DNA of 52,066 bases from a virus (lineage: Duplodnaviria > Caudoviricetes). The position numbers were made by a program, and so were the translations under genes. Under the pieces are notes generated by a model. It saw only the letters and a program-made list of their open reading frames with translations, searched no databases and was not told where the DNA came from. Where the stretch lies: positions 1 through 52,066 of the IMG/VR virus record IMGVR_UViG_3300047408_000188; one strand, 5' to 3'. Numbering within the stretch: position 1 is the first letter of the stretch; each line of letters starts with the position of its first letter. Of the stretch, positions 3,783 to 14,489 are shown piece by piece.

Positions 3783-4291
3783 AGAACAGCCTCCTGTTCA
3801 CAGGCGATTGCCAGGGCCAGCGATAGCGGATAGGGCACCATAGCCCGATGCTGTTTCTGCCAGCCGCTCAGATGTTCTTTCCGCTTGGAAACCACAGCCT
3901 TGAACGCTGGGAACACGCCCCAGAGGTAGTAAGGGCCGAACCTCCTGGCAGGCTCTCCAAGCCATCGCGTGGCGCCGCGGACGTTCTCCAGTATCCACCA
4001 GCGAGGCTTGCACTCCTCAACGATTCGCAGGGCAGCAATCACCAGTGACAGATCGGGCCGCCTTGGCGTCCGCTTGCGAGTCCACGGCATTGACCACCTT
4101 GAGAACTCTTGGCAGGGCGGCGAGGCCCAGAGCAGATCAGGGCTTGGCCCGGCATACGACCACTGCCGCAGGTCGGCAACGTGAGTCGGGTTCATGGACC
4201 GGACGTTATCCACCGTCACGACCTCCCAGCCACGCTGGCTCATTGCAGCGGAGGCGCCCTTGTAGCCGCAGAAAAGATCAAGCATGAGCAA
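3752..4291 (-). CDS. Short DNA cytosine-C5 methyltransferase-like protein
   Basis: Motif I LDLFCG and motif IV ASPPCQEFS, then ILENV. Confidence 0.8.
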   Translation of the reverse strand: MLMLDLFCGYKGASAAMSQRGWEVVTVDNVRSMNPTHVADLRQWSYAGPSPDLLWASPPCQEFSRWSMPWTRKRTPRRPDLSLVIAALRIVEECKPRWWILENVRGATRWLGEPARRFGPYYLWGVFPAFKAVVSKRKEHLSGWQKQHRAMVPYPLSLALAIACEQEAVLCKPPRNASP

Positions 4292-4598
4292 CGGGCTCTC
4301 TCCTCAGCAGGCCCACAGCCCGCAGACTGGCGACGTGTTTACAGCCCTTCTCGTCGTGCCCGTCCCGCGCGTAGAGGAAGTCGGGGCACGAACACACGGG
4401 CCCATGCTCAGTGAGGGCCACGTCGTAGCTAGAATCGTCCGTCTTCGTTAGGCGCCAGGCGGGCGTGGCTTCCGGGTAGGGGTTGAGGTAGGTCAGCGCG
4501 TAGGCGTGGCTGGTCTCCTGCCCCTTGTCGTTGACGACGGTGATGGCGATCCAGAGCTTGGCCCGGCCCATAACTGGCGGTCTCGTTTTTGTCGGCAC
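4278..4598 (-). CDS. SWIM-type zinc-finger protein
   Basis: CSCPDF...GCKH; GGAGG SD before GTG 4598. Confidence 0.75.
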   Translation of the reverse strand: MPTKTRPPVMGRAKLWIAITVVNDKGQETSHAYALTYLNPYPEATPAWRLTKTDDSSYDVALTEHGPVCSCPDFLYARDGHDEKGCKHVASLRAVGLLRREPVAHA

Positions 4599-4881
4599 GT
4601 CGGAGCCTCCAGAGTTCGTTGAGGATGTCGCACTGCAAGAGTCCTTCCCTGGCGGCGACAATAGCCAGGCAGTCCTCACGGGTAGGCGGGTTGCCGTCGT
4701 GGTGCTTGGTATGGCACAGGCGGCACAGGGCGAGCAGGTTGATCCGCACGTCGAGCCGCCCGCCGCCGCCCATGTTTTTGTGCAGAATGTGGTGCGGGTC
4801 GCACTGGCGGAACCACTCGCACCACTCGCAACGCCGCAAGCCTCGGAAGTCGTTCAGGACCAGTTCGTCCTTGATCTGCAT
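4429..4881 (-). CDS. HNH-family nuclease
   Basis: CEWC...DPHHI...NLLALCRLCHTKHH. The C-terminal tail overlapping the SWIM gene is probably non-functional. Confidence 0.75.
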   Translation of the reverse strand: MQIKDELVLNDFRGLRRCEWCEWFRQCDPHHILHKNMGGGGRLDVRINLLALCRLCHTKHHDGNPPTREDCLAIVAAREGLLQCDILNELWRLRRADKNETASYGPGQALDRHHRRQRQGAGDQPRLRADLPQPLPGSHARLAPNEDGRF

Positions 4882-4890
4882 GGCGTCTCC

Positions 4891-5154
4891 TTAGTCGCGG
4901 GGGTCGATGGCGGAATGCGGCAGTTCCTTCACCGCTGAACCGCCGTACTTCTGGACGTACTTTGACAGGAACCACTGAATAACCAGTGCCTCAGTCTCGC
5001 CGTTGTCCAACTCGGCCATGATGCGGTCAATCTTGGCCATCGCCTGCAATTCCGGGTCCAGGCCCCGCGGCGTCTTGCGTGGCGCCGGTTCGGGCGGTTG
5101 GTTCCTGTCGTCGTTGTGAATCGCGTCTCGGTTAGCTTCTGCGTTCGCCTTCAC
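4891..5154 (-). CDS. Hypothetical protein
   Basis: AAGGAG SD; GTGA coupling. Confidence 0.6.
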   Translation of the reverse strand: MKANAEANRDAIHNDDRNQPPEPAPRKTPRGLDPELQAMAKIDRIMAELDNGETEALVIQWFLSKYVQKYGGSAVKELPHSAIDPRD

Positions 5155-5369
5155 TTTCTTGCTCCTTGGGATGGTTGTGCCGGCTTGCCATTGGCCGGCT
5201 GGGGTTGCGAGGCGTCGTACATAACGCCCAGCTTGGTTTCGATCTTCTGCCGCATCTGCCGGAGCCACACGGACAGCTCGGCCCCGTGCTTGCCACTCAT
5301 GGCGGCATCGAGGAGCCAGCCTTCGATCTCGTGCCGGAACTCCTGAATGAACTGCTCGCGGGTACGCAT
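5151..5369 (-). CDS. Hypothetical protein
   Basis: AAGGA SD; natural codon usage. Confidence 0.65.
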   Translation of the reverse strand: MRTREQFIQEFRHEIEGWLLDAAMSGKHGAELSVWLRQMRQKIETKLGVMYDASQPQPANGKPAQPSQGARK

Positions 5370-5399
5370 CGCGGCGTCCTTGCGGGCGAAGGACTCGGC

Positions 5400-5642
5400 T
5401 CACTTCTTCTTCCGGTGCTGTTCGACCGTTGGACAAGTTGCGTGATGATCGAGGTAACGCAGGAAGGATGACACTTCCTCGAACAAGTCATCCTTGCGGT
5501 GAACATGGGCCTTGCCGTCCACGATCGAGATATTGCCCTTCGGATCGGGCTGGGCGTTGAGGATCAGGTAGTTGCCCGTCGTGGCGCTCTGAACGAAGAT
5601 GACAGCGGCACCACAGGATTTGCAGTTGGTCGGTTCAGGCAT
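5400..5642 (-). CDS. Small zinc-binding phage protein
   Basis: CKSCGAAVIF...HHATCP. Confidence 0.7.
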   Translation of the reverse strand: MPEPTNCKSCGAAVIFVQSATTGNYLILNAQPDPKGNISIVDGKAHVHRKDDLFEEVSSFLRYLDHHATCPTVEQHRKKK

Positions 5643-7296
5643 TGGCGGGAACCTCCTTGGGTACGAGTCGATCCGCTGGTACGTCGCGGACCAGATTGAA
5701 CGTGTCAACGTCGGAGAGGGGCATCAGCGGCCAGTTCCGGTCGGGCCAGAACCCGCGGTTTTCCTGAGCGAACATGCCGAAGGCTTGGCGGAACGTGGCG
5801 CTCCACTTCTTGGACCTGGCCCGGTAGTACATCCGTTCCCAAACGGCCGGACTTGGCAGCACGATCTTTCCTGAACCGCCGCATTTCTCACAGGGAGCGT
5901 CTTTAACTTGCCCTGAACCCTTGCAGGGATAGCACGGAACCGGCAAAGACTTCGGTGCCGTGCGGCGAGGCTCGAACACGTCGCCGGTCATCTCGCGGAG
6001 GCTGCCGTCCGTGCTCACCACCGGCCGCGACCGCTTCTGGCCCGCTGGCAGTTCCCAGCCGCAGCCGCCGAACTTCTCCAGGCAGCGGGGCCCGAAAATC
6101 ACCGCTTTGCATCGCGGACACAGGCCGGGCTGCTTCGATGGGTCTTTGCGAAGGGCATCGGCCCGAAGGCCGTAGATCATGGTGTCGGTGGCGTCGAGTC
6201 GCCAGTGGCGGTCGGCGTTGAGGCTTCCGTGGCGCCACCAGTTGCCGCCGTGGTCTTGGACCGTAACGGATTGTAGACCAGGATAACTTCTGAGCAGTCG
6301 TCCGCCTGACTGTAGAAAAGTTCCGACGGAACCAAAGATTGTGGCAAAGATGCAATGAGCCAACCAAGGGCAATCAATGCCCTCTCGGAGCACGAATCTA
6401 TTCGTGAGAACGGGTATACTGCCATCTTTCGATCCCTCCAAAACGTCCTTCCGGGCTTCCCGGTCACTCTTGTAGAACTTACCGTCGATCCAGATGTCCT
6501 GCCCGTCAATGTGGGCCGAGCGAACGCCGCGCTTCGTGAACTGCTCCGCGAACCAGATGCTTTCCCCAACCCCCGGCGCGAACAGGATCGTCGGATTGTG
6601 CTCGGGGTTCAAGCGCTCGAACCACTCCCAGACGCGGCCCCAGATCGAGGGCGTCATGATCGCTTTGCGGGCTTGGTTCTCGCTCAGGTCTTTTCCTTCT
6701 TGGACTTTGAGGGCTCGAAGGGTGCGAACGGCCGGTTCATCAGGTCCAAAGTGTCTTGCAGCAACGAGAGCGCCGCAGTCTCGAAGACTTGTTGTTGTTC
6801 CCGCGACCACCAGTGCGGCATATAGACCCGCAAGACCAATAGGGGTTGCAGTGTAGCCAACGATCGCAGCCTCTCGGCTGTGATGGGCTTCGAGGATTGC
6901 GGCGGCTGTGTCTCCGATTTGGACATGAGCTTCATCCACCAAAACAAGGTCTGCGTTGTGTAGGTCCCACGTCTTCTTCTTCATCGACCGCGAGTGCTCG
7001 GTCTGGATCGAGCTGACCTGAAACGGATGGTCCCGCTCGTCCTCGTAGCCGGCCGCCCGAACGCCGTGGTACAGACCAGCGTCGAGAAAGACGTTGCTGG
7101 TCTGATCGAGGAGCATCCGGCGGTTGGTGTAGAGCACGACGCGCAACCGTCGGTCCAAGTAGTCCTTGGCCAGCATGGTCATCATTCGCGTCTTGCCGCC
7201 CCCGGTGGGCGAAGTGACACACAGACGGCGCTCGCCGCGGGCGATGGCGGCGAGCGTCTCGTTGTGTCCGCTCAGTTGGTGCGGCCAGGGGTCCAT
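5635..7296 (-). CDS. SF2 DEAH-box helicase with C-terminal Zn ribbons
   Basis: SPTGGGKT, DEAH, TATP, EGIDCP and QSGGRLLR motifs; CPRC and two CxxCxGxG repeats. Confidence 0.92.
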   Translation of the reverse strand: MDPWPHQLSGHNETLAAIARGERRLCVTSPTGGGKTRMMTMLAKDYLDRRLRVVLYTNRRMLLDQTSNVFLDAGLYHGVRAAGYEDERDHPFQVSSIQTEHSRSMKKKTWDLHNADLVLVDEAHVQIGDTAAAILEAHHSREAAIVGYTATPIGLAGLYAALVVAGTTTSLRDCGALVAARHFGPDEPAVRTLRALKVQEGKDLSENQARKAIMTPSIWGRVWEWFERLNPEHNPTILFAPGVGESIWFAEQFTKRGVRSAHIDGQDIWIDGKFYKSDREARKDVLEGSKDGSIPVLTNRFVLREGIDCPWLAHCIFATIFGSVGTFLQSGGRLLRSYPGLQSVTVQDHGGNWWRHGSLNADRHWRLDATDTMIYGLRADALRKDPSKQPGLCPRCKAVIFGPRCLEKFGGCGWELPAGQKRSRPVVSTDGSLREMTGDVFEPRRTAPKSLPVPCYPCKGSGQVKDAPCEKCGGSGKIVLPSPAVWERMYYRARSKKWSATFRQAFGMFAQENRGFWPDRNWPLMPLSDVDTFNLVRDVPADRLVPKEVPANA

Positions 7297-9938: not shown

Positions 9939-10702
9939 GCTGCCCCTCCCTTCGCCGGCTCCCGGCGCTTCCTGGCGAGGTAGGAGACGGCCTCAACGAA
10001 TTGCTTCTGAGACAACTGATCGAGCGTTTCGACTTGGCACCAGGCGTAGAACTTCTTGAGGTTAACCGGGCGGCCAAGGCGTTCCAGTTCATCAAAGGCT
10101 TCGTTGAGGACCTGGATTTGCTCGGGCGTGATCGAAGACTGGCCGTTGCCGTCCTTGTCTGCCCCCTGGATCGGGATGTTGAAGTACAGGCGGAGCATAT
10201 CCCTCTGGCAGTACGAGCCGCTGCTGACGGTGCCCTGGAGCGGGTTCATGCTGGAGCCGCCCTTGGCCCCAACGCCATCCCGGGCGTACTCGCCGTGCCG
10301 CGTGTCAACATGGCCGTCCCGGTGACGGACGGTCATGACGAAATGCACGTTGCCCTCGGTCCAAGGCTTGTCCTGGCTGAAACTGACCGAGAACCCGTGC
10401 TTCGTGTACACGGGCTTGGCGACGGAGACCACGGCGGCCAGTTCCGCGTACATCTTCTTGGTGTGGTCGTTCTCCAGGTTCTTGATGACGGCCGGCATCT
10501 CAGCCTGGGCGTCGTTGAGCGCGATGTTGAAGGCTTCAAGGGCTCGCCGGTCGGCGAGGTGTTCGGCCAGCTCGATGAGCTTGCCCAGCTTGTCGGGGTC
10601 GTAGCCCTTATCCAAAGCCTTGTCGATCATCACGATCTCCGGCTTGGACGGCGGGGCGAACATGGTGGGCGGTTGCGGCTGTTCTTCAAAGGTGGCGGTC
10701 AA
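9935..10702 (-). CDS. erf: ERF-family single-strand annealing protein
   Basis: AQAEMPAVIKN...YAELAAVV...KHGFS...GSYCQR...DKDGN; TTG start with AAGGAG SD; adjacent to YqaJ. Confidence 0.85.
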   Translation of the reverse strand: MTATFEEQPQPPTMFAPPSKPEIVMIDKALDKGYDPDKLGKLIELAEHLADRRALEAFNIALNDAQAEMPAVIKNLENDHTKKMYAELAAVVSVAKPVYTKHGFSVSFSQDKPWTEGNVHFVMTVRHRDGHVDTRHGEYARDGVGAKGGSSMNPLQGTVSSGSYCQRDMLRLYFNIPIQGADKDGNGQSSITPEQIQVLNEAFDELERLGRPVNLKKFYAWCQVETLDQLSQKQFVEAVSYLARKRREPAKGGAA

Positions 10703-10835
10703 AGCTGTCTCCTTGAAAGTTGCCGCTGACGTTGCCGGCTCGTCAGCAGCGGTATAACTCCTGCCGGGGAGTCCCGAACCCGTCGGGCCGGTTGCCTTGA
10801 GCCGGCAAACTGCCTGCCTGTTAGGGTCGGTAGGC

Positions 10836-11207
10836 TTAGACACCGGATTTGGCCAGAAGCGGTTCGTCACAGCTCCAGGTCTGCTCCTCGACCTCAACCG
10901 TCTCCTCGCCGTCTTGAATCATCTTGGGCCGGGTGACGGTCTTCTTGGTGATCTCCAGCTTGCAGACCTGCTCGCGCCGAATGTTGAACTCCAGATCGAC
11001 GCCCCCGCCGAATTGCTTGCGGAGCCAGAAGTAATCACCGCTCCAGTGTTTCGTGACAGGGCCATGCTCCCTGGCGATTGCGGCAAGCTCCTCTTTGTCC
11101 GAAACAAAGAGGTTGAAGTTGGGATTCGGAAGGTAGAACTTTGGGTTCTGTTCCAAGAAGTCAGCCAAAGCCCGAAGGCCAGCAACAACTTCGGCTGTGT
11201 TCACCAT
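10836..11207 (-). CDS. Hypothetical phage protein (GLRALADFLEQNP)
   Basis: GGGAG SD; natural codon usage. Confidence 0.7.
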   Translation of the reverse strand: MVNTAEVVAGLRALADFLEQNPKFYLPNPNFNLFVSDKEELAAIAREHGPVTKHWSGDYFWLRKQFGGGVDLEFNIRREQVCKLEITKKTVTRPKMIQDGEETVEVEEQTWSCDEPLLAKSGV

Positions 11208-11232
11208 TGCTGCGTCTCCCTGTGAAAAGAAT

Positions 11233-11260
11233 TTGACACTTCGTAACTCGGAGTTAGACT
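11233..11260 (+). promoter_or_regulatory. Integrase promoter with an overlapping operator-like palindrome
   Basis: TTGACA-16 nt-TAGACT; palindrome TAACTC-G-GAGTTA at 11244-11256. Confidence 0.7.
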
Positions 11261-11264
11261 GTAT

Positions 11265-11301
11265 CTCGCTGGGCGCCGGCAACGAGCCGGCGCCCAGCGA
11301 G
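11265..11301. repeat. Perfect 16-bp inverted repeat with a 5-nt spacer (hairpin or lox/att-like site)
   Basis: CTCGCTGGGCGCCGGC-AACGA-GCCGGCGCCCAGCGAG. Confidence 0.85.
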
Positions 11302-11337
11302 TGAAGCCTCCATGCGGGTAGCACCACTGGAGGCACA

Positions 11338-12279
11338 ATGCCCAGCAACCCATCTCACGTCCCAATCGCTGCCATGAAAGTCAACGAAGTCTGCGCGCTT
11401 TACCTGCGCCACTGCGAGGTAGAGGGCACCCATTGTCCCGCGGCCCGTGAAGATCGGCTCCGCACCCTTGCGATGTTCGTCAAAGTCCACGGAGAGCGCA
11501 CCATCGCCGAGTGCCGACCGTTCCACCTGGCCGACTTCATCGAGAACAACCCGCGTTGGAAAAGCACCGCCACAAGGCGGGCGAAATGTAACGAAGTCCG
11601 GGCCTGCTTCGAGTGGGCCCACCGTGGCGAGAGAATCGAACGCAACCCCTTCAAGAGCGTGCGCTACGCCGAGGCAGAACGCCGGCCCGACATGCCGGAC
11701 GACACCCTCGACCGCATCGCCCAGCTCAGCAACAAGCCCTTTGAGCGGGTCGTGCGGTTCCTGCGCCTGACCGGGGCCCGTCTGGGCGAACTGTGTGAGG
11801 CGGTCTGGAAGGACGTTGACCTGGAGCGCGGCATCTGGATCATCCCGAAGCACAAGACGCGGAAATACACCGGCAAGGCCAAGGTGATTGCACTGGTGCC
11901 TGAGGCGGTTGCTCTGCTTCGGGTTATGACACCAACAGGTGCAGGTGGCGTCTGCGCAGGTGTCGTGCTCGCCCCAACTGCAAGCAAAGCTGAAACGCTG
12001 TTCCTGAACACCCGCGGCCGTCCCTGGAACCGACGCACCCTGGGCCAGCAGCTCCGCAGGATGAAGCAGCGGCACGGCATCGACACCAAGGCGAGCCTGC
12101 ACGGCATCCGGCACAGGTTCGGGACGTGTGCCGTGGCGAACAAGGCCCCGATTAAGCTCATCTCGATGCAGTTGGGGCACTCGACAGTTCAAGTCACCGA
12201 GCGGTACTACTGCGACCTGACGAACGAATTGGACGCCATCAGGGATGCGGCTCGGCTGGCGTTGCCGAAGGTGGGATAA
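11338..12279 (+). CDS. int: Tyrosine recombinase/integrase with no obvious arm-binding domain
   Basis: TGARLGE (R), KHKT (K), LHGIRH (HxxR), LGH and ERYY (Y); GGAGG SD. Confidence 0.93.
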   Translation: MPSNPSHVPIAAMKVNEVCALYLRHCEVEGTHCPAAREDRLRTLAMFVKVHGERTIAECRPFHLADFIENNPRWKSTATRRAKCNEVRACFEWAHRGERIERNPFKSVRYAEAERRPDMPDDTLDRIAQLSNKPFERVVRFLRLTGARLGELCEAVWKDVDLERGIWIIPKHKTRKYTGKAKVIALVPEAVALLRVMTPTGAGGVCAGVVLAPTASKAETLFLNTRGRPWNRRTLGQQLRRMKQRHGIDTKASLHGIRHRFGTCAVANKAPIKLISMQLGHSTVQVTERYYCDLTNELDAIRDAARLALPKVG

Positions 12280-12281
12280 GC

Positions 12282-12379
12282 AAAAGGGCGAGCCGGCCGG
12301 TGTTTCATGGCTAAGCACACGTTTTGGGATGTGAACAGCGTTGCAGGTTCTCCCTGCACACCATGCCGACCGGCTCGCC
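12282..12379 (-). terminator. Large multi-branch terminator-like structure facing int
   Basis: GGCGAGCCGG/CCGGCTCGCC stem followed by CTTTT on the minus strand, with internal hairpins. Confidence 0.5.
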
Positions 12380-12409
12380 GCGTTGCTTTCCACCCGCGAA
12401 GGGTGGGGT

Positions 12410-12595
12410 TCACTGCTTCGCGATCGCTTCTGCAACCGCGATTGCTTGCAGTATTTCGTCTGGTGCAAGTTGCATGTCGTACTCTTGGGTTCGTAGATCG
12501 TCAGCCAGTTGAGCCGCCGCTGGCTTCCTTGGCACGCCATGACATTTCCACTGAACCGAAAGCTCGCTCTCAACCCAGGCAATTGCATCGAACAT
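12410..12595 (-). CDS. Hypothetical protein
   Basis: ATG with AGGATGGA upstream; helical C-terminus. Confidence 0.5.
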   Translation of the reverse strand: MFDAIAWVESELSVQWKCHGVPRKPAAAQLADDLRTQEYDMQLAPDEILQAIAVAEAIAKQ

Positions 12596-12881
12596 AAGAC
12601 TTCCATCCTGAGTGTTTGGGAATCAAATGCCGGTCTCTCCCGGCTGTCACCCCTGCTTGCTACCCCGCGGCACCTGCCGCCGCTTGGCGTATCGGCTTGT
12701 GACTGAGCTGGACTCAGGGCCGAGTTAGCCTTGCTGGTGGTCTTACGGTGGAGGTCGTCGGGATACCCTGCCGCGACTATGGACCCATCGAAGGCCCCGG
12801 CAGGGCTGCTCTCGTTGTGTTCTTTGCTGCTTGTGAGGTTTGCAGCGGAATGAGTGTCGCGCTCACACGGTGGAACGCAGG

Positions 12882-12954
12882 GGTCCGTTAGCGCAGTTGG
12901 TAGCGCACCTGGATCACACCCAGGGGGTCGCAGGTTCGAGCCCTGCACGGACCA
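12882..12954 (+). tRNA. tRNA-Val(CAC), no encoded CCA; candidate attP
   Basis: Acceptor GGTCCGT/ACGGACC, D-arm GCGC-AGTTGGTA-GCGC, anticodon stem CCTGG/CCAGG with loop AT-CAC-AC, T-arm GCAGG-TTCGAGC-CCTGC, discriminator A. Confidence 0.9.
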
Positions 12955-12981
12955 GTCGGCTTGTTGATCGTTCTTCATGGA

Positions 12982-13632
12982 TCACTCGGCAATGAGCTTG
13001 GCCAAAATCTTCTTGTCGCGGAACGGGTTGCCGAACATCTTGCGGAGGTGTTTGGCTTGGGCGTCCCTGGCTGCGGCCCAGGCTGCGGCCCTGGCTGCGG
13101 CCCAGGCTGCGTCCCTGGCTGCGTCCCAGGCTGCGTCCCAGGCTGCGTCCCTGGCTGCGTCCCAGGCTGCGTCCCTGGCTGCGTCCCTGGCTGCGTCCCT
13201 GGCTGCGTCCCTGGCTGCGGCCCTGGCTGCGGCCCAGGCTGCGGCCCTGGCTGCGGCCCAGGCTGCGTCCCTGGCTGCGGCCCTGGCTGCGGCCCAGGCT
13301 GCGTCAAGTTCGTCCTGCGTGGCGTTCCCCTCCGCGAAGCGCTCCGCCACCTCGACGGCTTTGCGGCTTCGCTCGTCCGTGAGCAGGTCCCAGACTTTGC
13401 GACCATCTTGTAGCGGCGTTTCGCGGACACACCAGCAGGCGAAGCGTCGAGCTTGCTGGTCGGTCCAGAGTCCGGCTTCGTCCAATGCCCAGATCATCCA
13501 TTCTGGATTCTCGCAGGCGAGCCATGCGGCCGAGGGCGTCTTGAATTGGCTCGCCCACTCGCGGCCTTCCTCGCAGGCGTCGAGCTTTTCGAGCAGTCGG
13601 CTAATCAGAGGCTTCGGTTTCGTCGTCGGCAT
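12982..13632 (-). CDS. Ala-rich repeat phage protein (Imm5-like N-terminus, AA[W/R][D/A] repeats)
   Basis: ACEEGREW...WMIWAL...RRFACWCVR...DERSRKAVEVAERFAEG...; 20 tetrapeptide repeats. Confidence 0.85.
   Translation of the reverse strand: MPTTKPKPLISRLLEKLDACEEGREWASQFKTPSAAWLACENPEWMIWALDEAGLWTDQQARRFACWCVRETPLQDGRKVWDLLTDERSRKAVEVAERFAEGNATQDELDAAWAAARAAARDAAWAAARAAAWAAARAAARDAARDAARDAARDAAWDAARDAAWDAAWDAARDAAWAAARAAAWAAARDAQAKHLRKMFGNPFRDKKILAKLIAE
13061..13305. repeat. Tandem 12-bp repeat, ~20 units: GCAGCC(A/T)GGG(A/C)C on the minus strand
   Basis: Read directly; only two positions vary. Confidence 0.95.
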
Positions 13633-13662
13633 GAATGCAACCCTCATTAGGTGACGCGAGCA

Positions 13663-13692
13663 AGTGTAGGCTGGCGTCATGCGTTTTGTCAA
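13663..13692 (-). promoter_or_regulatory. Leftward early promoter
   Basis: TTGACA-18 nt-TACACT on the minus strand. Confidence 0.7.
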
Positions 13693-13711
13693 TCTTGGTG
13701 CCACACGTTTC

Positions 13712-13740
13712 TTGACGGCGTTCCGCAAGGCGGTTATTCT
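13712..13740 (+). promoter_or_regulatory. Rightward promoter for the RHH regulator, back-to-back with the early promoter
   Basis: TTGACG-17 nt-TATTCT. Confidence 0.7.
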
Positions 13741-13743
13741 CCT

Positions 13744-13977
13744 ATGGGTACGTCATTCAACGAGAACGGGAGAAAACCCTTGACGGTGCGAATTGTGGTC
13801 CGGGCTGCTGCCGAATTGAAAGACCTCGCCGGCCTGGAGGCTGACAAGGCGAACATTCCGCTTTCCGAGTGGATCGTGCGGGTTGTGGCCAAGCAGATCG
13901 GCCGCCGCGACCTGGCCGAAGTGCCCCGCAAGAAACTCGGCCGTCCCCGCAAATCCACGCATAACGGCACTTCCTGA
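13744..13977 (+). CDS. Ribbon-helix-helix (Arc/HicB-like) DNA-binding protein with AT-hook; candidate repressor. Alternative TTG start at 13780
   Basis: Beta strand VRIVVRA, helix ELKDLAGLEADK, NIPLSEWIVRVV and the GRPRK hook. Confidence 0.7.
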   Translation: MGTSFNENGRKPLTVRIVVRAAAELKDLAGLEADKANIPLSEWIVRVVAKQIGRRDLAEVPRKKLGRPRKSTHNGTS

Positions 13978-14012
13978 CCTACACTTCCTCCGGCCCACTA
14001 ACCGGAGGCAAC

Positions 14013-14138
14013 ATGCACCGCTCACCCTATGAAGCTCTGGCTCGCGGCGTCACGATAGGCGGCACCGCTCTTGTGTTGGCGTTTCTCCGCTGGCTGACGG
14101 CCCGAGGGGCGCCGGAGAACCGGGGCGAAGGGGAATAG
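14013..14138 (+). CDS. 41-aa single-TM peptide (not in the ORF track)
   Basis: MHRSPYEALARGVTIGGTALVLAFLRWLTARGAPENRGEGE; GGAGG SD; followed by an 11-bp hairpin at 14143-14171. Confidence 0.55.
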   Translation: MHRSPYEALARGVTIGGTALVLAFLRWLTARGAPENRGEGE

Positions 14139-14186
14139 GGGTGCCCGCGTGTGCTGGGCACACACGCGGGCCGGCTGGGGAGCCGT

Positions 14187-14489
14187 TTAGTAAGGGATCT
14201 CAACGAAGCGGTCGCCGCGCTTGAGGGTCGGCCCCAGCCCCGTGTACACGATCTCGGTAAACCCGTAGGGCTTCACCAGATCGGCAATCTGCTTGGTCAA
14301 GTCGTCCACGATGGCACCCCAGCGCTGAGCGTTGAAGTTCTTGTCCGAGGCATTCGGATAGGACGGATGCGGGTCGCCGTTGCAGTAATGCGTGTTGGCG
14401 TCGCCGGCCCGCTTGGCGAAGCTCACCAGTTGGCGAACCTTGGCTAACGGCATCTTCCAATCTTCCGCGAATCGCTCCTGAGCTGTCAT
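14187..14489 (-). CDS. Hypothetical early protein
   Basis: GGGGAG SD; natural codon usage. Confidence 0.7.
   Translation of the reverse strand: MTAQERFAEDWKMPLAKVRQLVSFAKRAGDANTHYCNGDPHPSYPNASDKNFNAQRWGAIVDDLTKQIADLVKPYGFTEIVYTGLGPTLKRGDRFVEIPY

Follow-up and report, generated by a model that had tools for sequence, protein, structure and literature searches.

ORF574, a frame of 574 codons that lies antisense to the tyrosine integrase gene int of a phage, is probably an untranslated shadow ORF and not a gene. The window (the whole stretch of DNA that was analysed, 52,066 nt) is a complete 52-kb soil phage genome, probably with a host among the Gemmataceae. The 3' 60% of ORF574 would be the shadow of int, with codons complementary to int codons, and the 5' 40% would be the same frame, open by continuation through a non-coding spacer that is probably the attP region and then through the antisense of tRNA-Val, and ending upstream at the stop of the neighbouring minus-strand gene. 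A Cys/His cluster in the frame would be a by-product of coding for a variable Ala/Thr/Gly/Val loop of the integrase, since in antisense GCA and ACA become TGC and TGT (Cys), GTG and ATG become CAC and CAT (His), and CCA becomes TGG (Trp). Function at the locus would reside in int, the tRNA and att region, a strong hairpin and the promoter-like sites, which together would make up a lysogeny cassette inverted in leftward early genes (Table 1). If this reading is correct, the locus is a worked example of a 574-codon shadow ORF mimicking a metal-binding motif, and a warning to annotators who meet such frames in phages rich in G+C.

Table 1. Features of the int region, with positions in the window
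Feature	Position	Strand	Description
Next leftward gene	10836..11207	-	123 aa, orphan; codon log-odds 0.382; ERF comes next
Promoter-like TTGACA-16-TAGACT	11233..11260	+	Upstream of int; 10/12 positions, consensus match only
ORF574	11254..12978	-	574 aa, ATG start; in the exact-complement register of int, prolonged through spacer and tRNA antisense
Perfect 16-bp inverted repeat, 5-nt loop	11265..11301		Between int and leftward gene, in last ORF574 codons
Tyrosine integrase gene int	11338..12279	+	PF00589, E 6.9e-25, 88.2 bits against a cut-off of 27.1; codon log-odds 0.234
Loop-coding segment TPTGAGGVCAGVVLAPTASK	11929..11988	+	A/T-ending codons; antisense gives Cys/His string
int-tRNA spacer, ~600 nt	12280..12881		Codon log-odds < 0 in all six frames
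61-aa ORF	12410..12595	-	Frame differs from that of ORF574; called by source gene caller; codon log-odds 0.095
Weak terminator-like hairpin	12644..12629	-	5-bp stem, tail ATTTGATT
tRNA-Val, anticodon CAC	12882..12954	+	ARAGORN; Rfam RF00005, 66.4 bits
Upstream gene, phrog_18326 (function unknown)	12982..~13647-13728	-	PHROG E 7.1e-22; 12-nt tandem repeat
Promoter-like TTGACA-18-TACACT	13692..13663	-	Consensus match only; sole leftward sigma-70-like site in 10700..14200

ORF574 ranks fifth by length among the stop-to-stop frames of the window. Its outline in a preliminary description of the locus (574 codons, a TGA-TCC-ATG start, a stop at 11254 and a 47-nt gap to the next gene) was confirmed from the ORF list and the sequence. 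The start triplets occupy 12984..12976 on the minus strand, where TGA ends the upstream gene, in the frame of ORF574 and 3 nt before its ATG. At the other end the stop is TAA (11254-11256), and the next minus-strand ATG follows at 11207. Codons 9-32 are the antisense of tRNA-Val, and the non-int part amounts to 234 codons, in agreement with the ~230 described earlier. Read-through of the TGA, joining the upstream gene to ORF574, was considered and set aside; the in-frame placing is a one-in-three chance.

The cassette of int, spacer and tRNA is inverted within minus-strand early genes, with the phrog_18326 gene upstream and the orphan, ERF (PF04404, E 9.2e-14), YqaJ and helicase genes downstream. 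At E <= 0.001 Int has 141 homologues, and its best match other than itself is 64% identical. Among 30 homologues, residues R148, H172/K173, H255, R258, H259 and Y291 do not vary and H281 hardly does; we take the invariant residues to fill the catalytic Arg, Lys, His-x-x-Arg, His and Tyr roles of the family. The source gene call for int begins at a later Met (11374), giving 301 aa. The spacer matched relatives' loci by blastn and tblastn in the tRNA only, contains in its region an inverted repeat (12278-12300 / 12366-12388), and is a candidate attP arm region. The 61-aa ORF within it is an orphan that matches only itself in the database, with no Pfam or PHROG family, and besides the tRNA an Rfam scan returned one sub-threshold hairpin match. 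The 16-bp inverted repeat downstream of int is unique in the window and has no T-run after it, and the fold of the hairpin region (11200-11345) has a z-score of -5.68. The stretch is covered by contigs from two soil DNA runs, with no joints seen. One of the runs may be its source; the other differs at 11603 in a single low-depth base, which is non-synonymous in both frames and thus uninformative. A ribbon-helix-helix identity for the product of 13744..13977 (+) is unsupported, as Pfam searches of the flanking genes of the window and of loci L002 and L003 were empty.

Two regulatory claims of the preliminary description fared differently. A minus-strand terminator had been placed inside the cassette; four such sites occur in the region against 3.3 +/- 2.0 in shuffles, so the hairpin is no better than chance. 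The reported lack of a good leftward promoter for the ERF genes holds for sigma-70-type sites in 10700..14200, where none lies nearer than 13692..13663. As this sole leftward site lies upstream, a leftward transcript would have to cross the cassette, and integration at or near the tRNA would part the promoter from the downstream genes.

PMC3454372 describes shadow ORFs, which are long antisense frames without stops that overlie genes of G+C-rich genomes. Going by that description, ORF574 is like them in lying in exact-complement register with a real gene and in lacking a coding signature, and unlike them in running 234 codons past the gene, across a tRNA and DNA that is non-coding. Its third codon positions fall on first positions of int, and its G+C by codon position has a profile typical of shadows (GC1 0.69, GC2 0.53, GC3 0.63). 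The codon log-odds score is 0.018 in the int part (shadows -0.017 +/- 0.060) and -0.093 in the non-int part, both below the 17 real genes (0.294 +/- 0.089, minimum 0.088). The non-int part is also unusual in composition, with 4.7% Cys, 13.3% Ser and 1.3% Ile, compared with 1.2%, 6.1% and 4.2% in the phage proteins.

No Pfam family (whole ORF, E <= 0.01) or PHROG family was found for ORF574, and no DNA-binding or repressor family; none of 7999 candidates of 315-1005 aa reached E <= 0.01 against it. A HMMER scan of 1.84 billion representatives gave nine matches, all on the int-antisense part (query residues 224-541), five of which start with the antisense-tRNA peptide. The database look-alikes of ORF574 are other antisense-of-integrase calls only. 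The non-int parts of five loci have no common similarity except a tRNA-derived pentapeptide. Among the window, L002, L003 and L004, conservation is confined to the sense frame in 79 columns out of 299 and to the antisense frame in 5, identity is 0.52-0.61 in sense and 0.29-0.44 in antisense, and pairwise differences per ~300 codons are most numerous at sense position 3 (145-184), with 98-130 at position 1 and 76-118 at position 2. AlphaFold2, run on an alignment of 11 antisense sequences, gave a mean pLDDT of 30.0 and a pTM of 0.16, with zero residues at or above 50. Codons, families, sense-frame variation and predicted fold are all without signs of a selected protein. Long antisense overlapping ORFs of Pseudomonas aeruginosa have been reported as translated and under purifying selection (PMC8850804). 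ORF574 is like the cases reported there in being very long and antisense over an annotated gene of a G+C-rich genome; unlike them, it is known from sequence alone, and its variation follows the sense frame only.

An antisense frame is open where TTA, CTA and TCA are rare. The int shadow is open because int has none of these codons, which is usual at the third-position G+C of the genome (~0.8). The probability of zero is 0.135 at the rate of 15 other genes (41 in 6456 codons), and amino-acid-aware resampling gives 0.21 for zero shadow stops in int. Elsewhere in the window, the shadows of real genes reach 420, 437 and 529 codons. These values bear out a caveat of the preliminary description, that an open antisense frame over int is to be expected in GC-rich DNA. 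It had regarded openness outside int as unusual, and the shuffles agree. The 234 non-int codons have no stops in the frame of ORF574 and four to nine in each of the other five frames; after dinucleotide shuffling this frame was open in 0.0012-0.0013 of cases and any of the six in 0.0125, probabilities to be read with caution since ORF574 was selected for its length. Shadow extensions of 162 and 220 codons in 2 of the 23 other window genes call for caution on rarity.

Stops in close relatives had been proposed as evidence against a functional frame. The frame is open across int in five of the six close loci (and in three of nine distant ones), while one close relative, L005, has stops in it, one of them inside the loop (CTA, an antisense stop). 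Four of the five relatives found by Int similarity alone have zero shadow stops, and the five together have 3 against 8.9-11.3 expected (Poisson 0.022-0.004, by reference codon table). When the A-ending share among four-fold codons was used as a control, the expectation for the five relatives came to 20.1 shadow stops, with 2 observed; this control was rejected as too naive, since CTA, TTA and TCA are scarcer in the reference genes than the remaining A-ending codons. Open frames of close relatives overshoot the int 3' end by 63-310 codons, in all five that have DNA past the int stop, whereas the three distant Int homologues with open shadows overshoot by 8-32 codons only.

Further relatives were sparse. 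Virus collections gave none with the single Int query or with P0030, one locus (L002) with alignment A1, and only a 27-residue, chance-level piece (L015) with P0103. A degenerate DNA pattern for RFLRLTGCR returned the contig of L002 again and an unrelated structural-gene contig (L039). Cultured phage records matched by blastn in the tRNA only and were empty for tblastn with Int at 1e-20. One close Int (the L006 locus) and eight distant loci were found in 252 Gemmataceae genomes, and nothing further at 1e-75 in a phylum sample of 401 genomes.

Within int, the preliminary description had singled out an odd Gly/Ala segment with atypical codons, and this is borne out by a GC3 of 0.40 in the loop and 0.83 in the remaining int. 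The segment TPTGAGGVCAGVVLAPTASK and its antisense CSWGEHDTCADATCTCWCH are both present in the window. When it was checked as a possible insertion, it proved to be a loop of variable length (9-43 residues in 30 homologues, at least 24 in 22 of them, and 26 in the window). A sense pattern [VMI]-A-x-[AT]-x-A, read by eye, recurs in many protein homologues. CAGGTG stands at 11936, 11942 and 11957, three copies in 27 nt as compared with 24 in the whole window, and these three supply three of the Cys codons. GCA accounts for 18 of the 30 Ala codons in loops and for 11 of the 138 elsewhere (Fisher 1.8e-9); for the relatives by themselves the figures are 15 of 25 and 9 of 111 (5.8e-8). Only codons that end in A are enriched in this way (NCA:NCT is 29:4 in loops and 19:17 outside), and CCA is equally enriched (6 of 11 loop Pro codons), reading in antisense as Trp, which is not a metal ligand. 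As to the Cys/His motif described earlier, the string itself is there, and the cluster occurs in 5 of the 11 antisense sequences (window, L002, L003, L004 and P0121), L003 alone having the exact antisense spacing of the window, H-C-x-C-x-C-x4-C-x2-H-x4-C. Its likeness to small phage Zn-binding proteins was not reproduced, with no zinc-binding Pfam family found at E <= 0.01. Against the shadow reading stand the openness of the 234 codons, the depletion of shadow stops, the long overshoot of the close relatives' frames, the bridging frames of L002 and L003 described below, the GCA enrichment and the L003 spacing. It leaves two things unexplained: the frame open in five of six close loci, with its bridging in L002 and L003, and the loop's GCA usage, with the L003 spacing.

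The position of ORF574 invites comparison with known integration systems. Mycobacteriophages BPs, Brujita and Charlie have integration-dependent immunity (PMC3694055, PMC4557955), in which the repressor ORF is on the int strand with attP inside, and integration removes a degradation tag (PMC3694055). As these reports describe them, ORF574 is similar in being adjacent to int and spanning a candidate attachment region by a tRNA-type site, so that integration would alter viral versus prophage expression. It is dissimilar in being antisense to int and without a repressor family, and its attP position is only a candidate. In tRNA-dependent lysogeny, a short common core destroys the host tRNA, and a phage tRNA of the same isotype is needed (PMC10865867). 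The complete tRNA gene beside a tyrosine integrase cassette is like the phages of that report; unlike them, as they are presented there, no near-identical tRNA-Val was found as a host attB in 252 Gemmataceae genomes, where the best matches are only 78-86% identical.

A rival reading, which we regard as unlikely, is that ORF574 is a bridge, selected for its openness and not for its product, with junk sequence tolerated, and that this applies to a clade of Gemmataceae phages. Background for it comes from lambda sib retroregulation, where circular and integrated topologies change the RNA elements linked to int, and from Rho polarity, in which untranslated RNA is open to Rho termination; the bridge idea would likewise rest on topology-dependent linkage and Rho exposure of untranslated RNA. 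Termination-reinitiation at the upstream stop would bring ribosomes onto the frame; these would cover the leftward transcript over the 1.77-kb antisense stretch and shield it from Rho until 47 nt before the next gene; and integration at the tRNA/attP would break the link in the prophage, tying early-gene expression to the excised state. Since no conserved protein is needed, the bridge fits the absent coding, homology and fold signals. It is favoured by an ATG 3 nt past the upstream stop and the close spacing at the far end, by the lack of a sigma-70-like leftward promoter from 13663 to the ERF operon, by the open frame in five of six close loci and by a Rho RNA-binding domain in all three Gemmataceae genomes searched. 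In L002 and L003, where the flanking genes bear no relation to those of the window, int is also inverted among minus-strand genes, and the frame begins at the upstream minus-strand stop and ends 14 and 66 nt short of the ATG of the following minus-strand gene, covering at least 95% of the gap (flank dinucleotide-shuffle probabilities 0.136 and 0.24 for L002, 0.025 and 0.34 for L003). However, the criteria for a bridge were set post hoc, and no more than two unbiased relatives are informative about them; the first in-frame start of L002 is a TTG 130 nt past the upstream stop; int of L004 and L006 is outside any minus-strand array, and L005 has stops. Each locus has a divergent intergenic region of 130-290 nt that could house its own leftward promoter, the promoter scan being limited to sigma-70-type sites, and high GC3 alone gives open shadows in three of five distant homologues with GC3 >= 0.82. 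Of the switch suggested in the preliminary description, the map fits (inverted cassette, upstream promoter, frame open in five of six), whereas the protein, the insertion, the terminator and the motif receive no support. If the bridge did exist, polarity would be suppressed by translating a meaningless frame, in a recombination-dependent switch unlike the repressor-truncation systems of mycobacteriophages.

The Cys/His string has two further explanations besides the by-product of loop coding preferred here. That it belongs to a real antisense protein, or to a shorter product of the same frame, with zinc-binding residues overprinted on the Int loop, seems highly improbable. The cluster recurs, with identical spacing in L003; sense M/V and T/A differences (ATG/GTG, ACA/GCA) leave the antisense amino acid unchanged; the rare GCA is strongly enriched; and the top pLDDT blocks of the antisense model, 44 and 43, sit on the cluster. 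However, the cluster is absent from 6 of the 11 antisense sequences, has no Pfam family and stays below pLDDT 50 throughout; from codon 148 to the motif ORF574 has no ATG in frame, and its remaining frame is without antisense constraint. The equal enrichment of CCA gives Trp and no ligand, the three CAGGTG copies explain three Cys codons, and the loop of L005, though also poor in GC3 (0.38), carries an antisense stop. It is quite possible, if a little short of an even chance, that the codon anomaly is a feature of the sense strand or the DNA, unrelated to ORF574: a degenerate (GCA-NNN)n repeat made by slippage, or a conserved cluster of rare codons. The CAGGTG copies, the recurrence of GCA followed by G in all four loops, the wide range of loop lengths and the low GC3 of even the short L005 loop point this way, and the tandem repeat of the neighbouring gene, which lifts GCA to 23 of 67 Ala codons, shows that repeats can spread a rare codon. 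Slippage would, however, leave unexplained why the wobble A is kept amid fully diverged intervening codons, a rare-codon cluster would admit T-ending codons, contrary to the NCA:NCT ratio, and the L006 loop has a GC3 of 0.85. Whichever reading applies, the clustering of A-ending codons in the loop is a solid anomaly that can be reproduced, in a family of integrases with 141 or more members, and it deserves an explanation.

The 574-codon minus-strand frame ORF574 (11254..12978) is present in the sequence, and its reported course was borne out at each point. Its ATG is in frame with the upstream minus-strand gene, three bases past that gene's TGA stop, and it passes through the tRNA, the spacer and all of int, the tyrosine integrase gene, in that order. 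Its stop at 11254 falls 47 nt before the next minus-strand ATG (11207), which opens a gene followed on the same strand by ERF, YqaJ and helicase genes. Together, int, a complete tRNA-Val, a perfect 16-bp hairpin and promoter-like sites make up a cassette that is inverted relative to the leftward early genes around it. The minus-strand terminator also proposed there is a 5-bp-stem consensus match, of which the region holds 4 against 3.3 from shuffles.

Features of the inverted int/tRNA cassette and its surroundings in the window
Feature	Position	Strand	Remarks
Perfect 16-bp palindrome, 5-nt loop	11265-11301		between int promoter-like site and int start
int	11338..12279	+	PF00589, E 6.9e-25
Inverted repeat, 23 nt, 83% complementary, arms 65 nt apart	12278-12300 and 12366-12388		from int stop codon
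Spacer, 600 nt			between int and tRNA-Val
tRNA-Val(CAC)	12882..12954	+	crossed by ORF574 in antisense
Promoter-like site	13692..13663	-	
Promoter-like site	13712..13740	+	

The palindrome has a fold z of -5.68, occurs once in the genome and is without a T-run; it may serve as an operator or form a hairpin of the int 5' UTR. The back-to-back promoter-like sites (13663-13740), which judged by eye look like a divergent switch, adjoin a small plus-strand ORF (13744..13977) with no match to any Pfam or PHROG family. The minus-strand gene at 12982..13647 encodes a phrog_18326 protein with GCA as 23/67 of its Ala codons, and carries a 12-nt tandem repeat (13050-13330) encoding (A-A-R/W-D/A)n, in which none of the six frames is interrupted by a stop. 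The 52,066-bp record has direct terminal repeats and is rated complete. Two soil metagenome runs, each from a different study, have contigs of a near-identical phage, and the record itself may stem from one of the two runs. Int has 141 database homologues (E <= 0.001; best non-self match 64% identity), of which one has Gemmataceae as its named source and another is encoded on a MAG contig from that family.

ORF574 is the exact complement of int in register, so over int it can be stopped by TTA, CTA or TCA codons alone. In 15 other phage genes these account for 41 of the 6456 codons, in int for none, and the probability of such an absence is 0.135, or 0.21 with the Int sequence fixed and codons resampled. 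Other window genes also carry shadow frames, that is, open antisense frames in codon-for-codon complement (420, 437 and 529 codons). The openness over int is ordinary, as the preliminary description had allowed. That of the non-int part (12280 to 12981; 234 codons, 0 stops, against 4-9 in the other five frames) had been called unexpected, and it is indeed rare in dinucleotide shuffles (0.0012-0.0013 for this frame, 0.0125 for any of six). However, of the shadows of 23 other window genes, two overshoot the 3' end by 162 and 220 codons and the others by 1-82, and the ORF574 overshoot is the longest seen yet not unique in kind. No coding signal was detected in 12280-12981, codon log-odds being below 0 in all six frames, and no conservation of this stretch was found in relatives apart from the tRNA. 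A 61-aa ORF in a different frame was called there by the source's gene caller, its sole database match being itself.

Close Int relatives with DNA comprise six loci: the window and L002-L006 (L007, L014 and L016 duplicate L006). The shadow is uninterrupted across int in five of the six, window included, but L005 has an antisense stop in its loop. In the five loci found independently of ORF574, 3 shadow stops are observed against 8.9-11.3 expected (p = 0.022-0.004). Among distant homologues, 3/9 shadows are open, from high third-position G+C alone, and these overshoot int by 8-32 codons, versus 63-310 in the close set. The L006 overshoot covers two plus-strand genes in int's frame; at 3845-5677 of that locus, int and the next two plus-strand ORFs share one frame with single stop codons between them.

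ORF574 is probably an untranslated shadow frame. Its codon log-odds, 0.018 in the int overlap and -0.093 in the rest, compare with 0.294 +/- 0.089 for real genes and -0.017 +/- 0.060 for shadows, and its composition is rich in Cys, Ser and Arg and poor in Ile. It matched no Pfam or PHROG family, and no homologues of 315-1005 aa were found. Scanning all 1.84 billion representatives gave nine proteins, aligned to the int-antisense part only, five of which (P0121, P0122, P0123, P0125 and P0127) start with an antisense-tRNA-encoded peptide; the nine are shadow calls by other gene callers. Of 299 columns in four Int genes, 79 are conserved in sense only versus 5 in antisense only, and variability is highest at sense third codon positions. 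AlphaFold2 modelling with 11 antisense sequences gave a mean pLDDT of 30, with 0 residues at or above 50.

A true zinc-binding antisense product is highly improbable. Int does contain the Gly/Ala-rich segment, opposite which CSWGEHDTCADATCTCWCH is read in antisense, and the Cys/His spacing recurs exactly in L003, with similar clusters in L004, L002 and P0121, but six other antisense sequences are without the cluster. The segment, bounded by LLR and FLNTRG, is a variable loop of 9-43 residues in 30 aligned homologues, with 26 in the window and at least 24 in 22/30, rather than an insertion that this phage alone has. The antisense Cys and His derive from loop codons GCA/ACA and GTG/ATG, part being supplied by a CAGGTG hexamer present three times within 27 nt. 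The loop codons are atypical as described, a trait shared with L002, L003 and L004: with the window, GCA makes up 18/30 loop Ala codons versus 11/138 elsewhere (Fisher 1.8e-9), and without it 15/25 versus 9/111, while NCA to NCT is 29:4 in loops and 19:17 outside. Against a zinc product, however, CCA is as enriched in the loops as GCA, and the antisense stop of L005 lies in a short loop that is also poor in third-position G+C.

Selection for openness alone, with ORF574 carrying the leftward early transcript across the cassette, is unlikely, though less so than a zinc product. In L002 and L003, int is likewise inverted among minus-strand genes, the flanking genes being unrelated to those of the window, and the open frame starts at the stop of the upstream gene and ends 14 and 66 nt short of the next ATG. 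Shuffling the flanks gives probabilities of 0.136 and 0.24 in L002 and of 0.025 and 0.34 in L003, which multiplied by the int term reach ~1e-3 per locus, for criteria chosen post hoc and two loci only. However, start codons are placed inconsistently, the first in-frame start of L002 being a TTG 130 nt past the upstream stop. Rho was found in 3/3 Gemmataceae genomes checked. Beside int in L002 (3143-3584) is a gene with a long (Cys-Ser-x)n repeat, whose other frames give LLG or PSS repeats.

We infer attP at or near the tRNA, because L004, too, has tRNA-Val(CAC) after int and antisense-tRNA peptides head five of the nine database shadow calls. The tRNA is downstream of int on the same strand in both, by 600 nt in the window (12882-12954) and 171 nt in L004 (5080-5153), and the two differ in sequence. 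On the other side of int, L004 has a putative acetyltransferase-like ORF, read from translation, with tRNA-Pro. The tRNA downstream of int and the antisense-tRNA peptides suggest that the Int clade integrates at tRNA-Val, carrying or abutting a full tRNA copy. With attP so placed, integration would leave the recombination genes cut off from the leftward promoter-like site at 13692.

Among known systems, ORF574 comes closest to the shadow ORFs of G+C-rich genomes (PMC3454372). Long antisense genes of Pseudomonas are reported as translated and under purifying selection (PMC8850804), which is absent in ORF574. Integration-dependent immunity (PMC3694055) shares the idea of an ORF spanning attP that is altered by integration, but there the ORF encodes a repressor and lies on the int strand. 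By analogy with tRNA-dependent lysogeny (PMC10865867), the phage tRNA may possibly have such a role.
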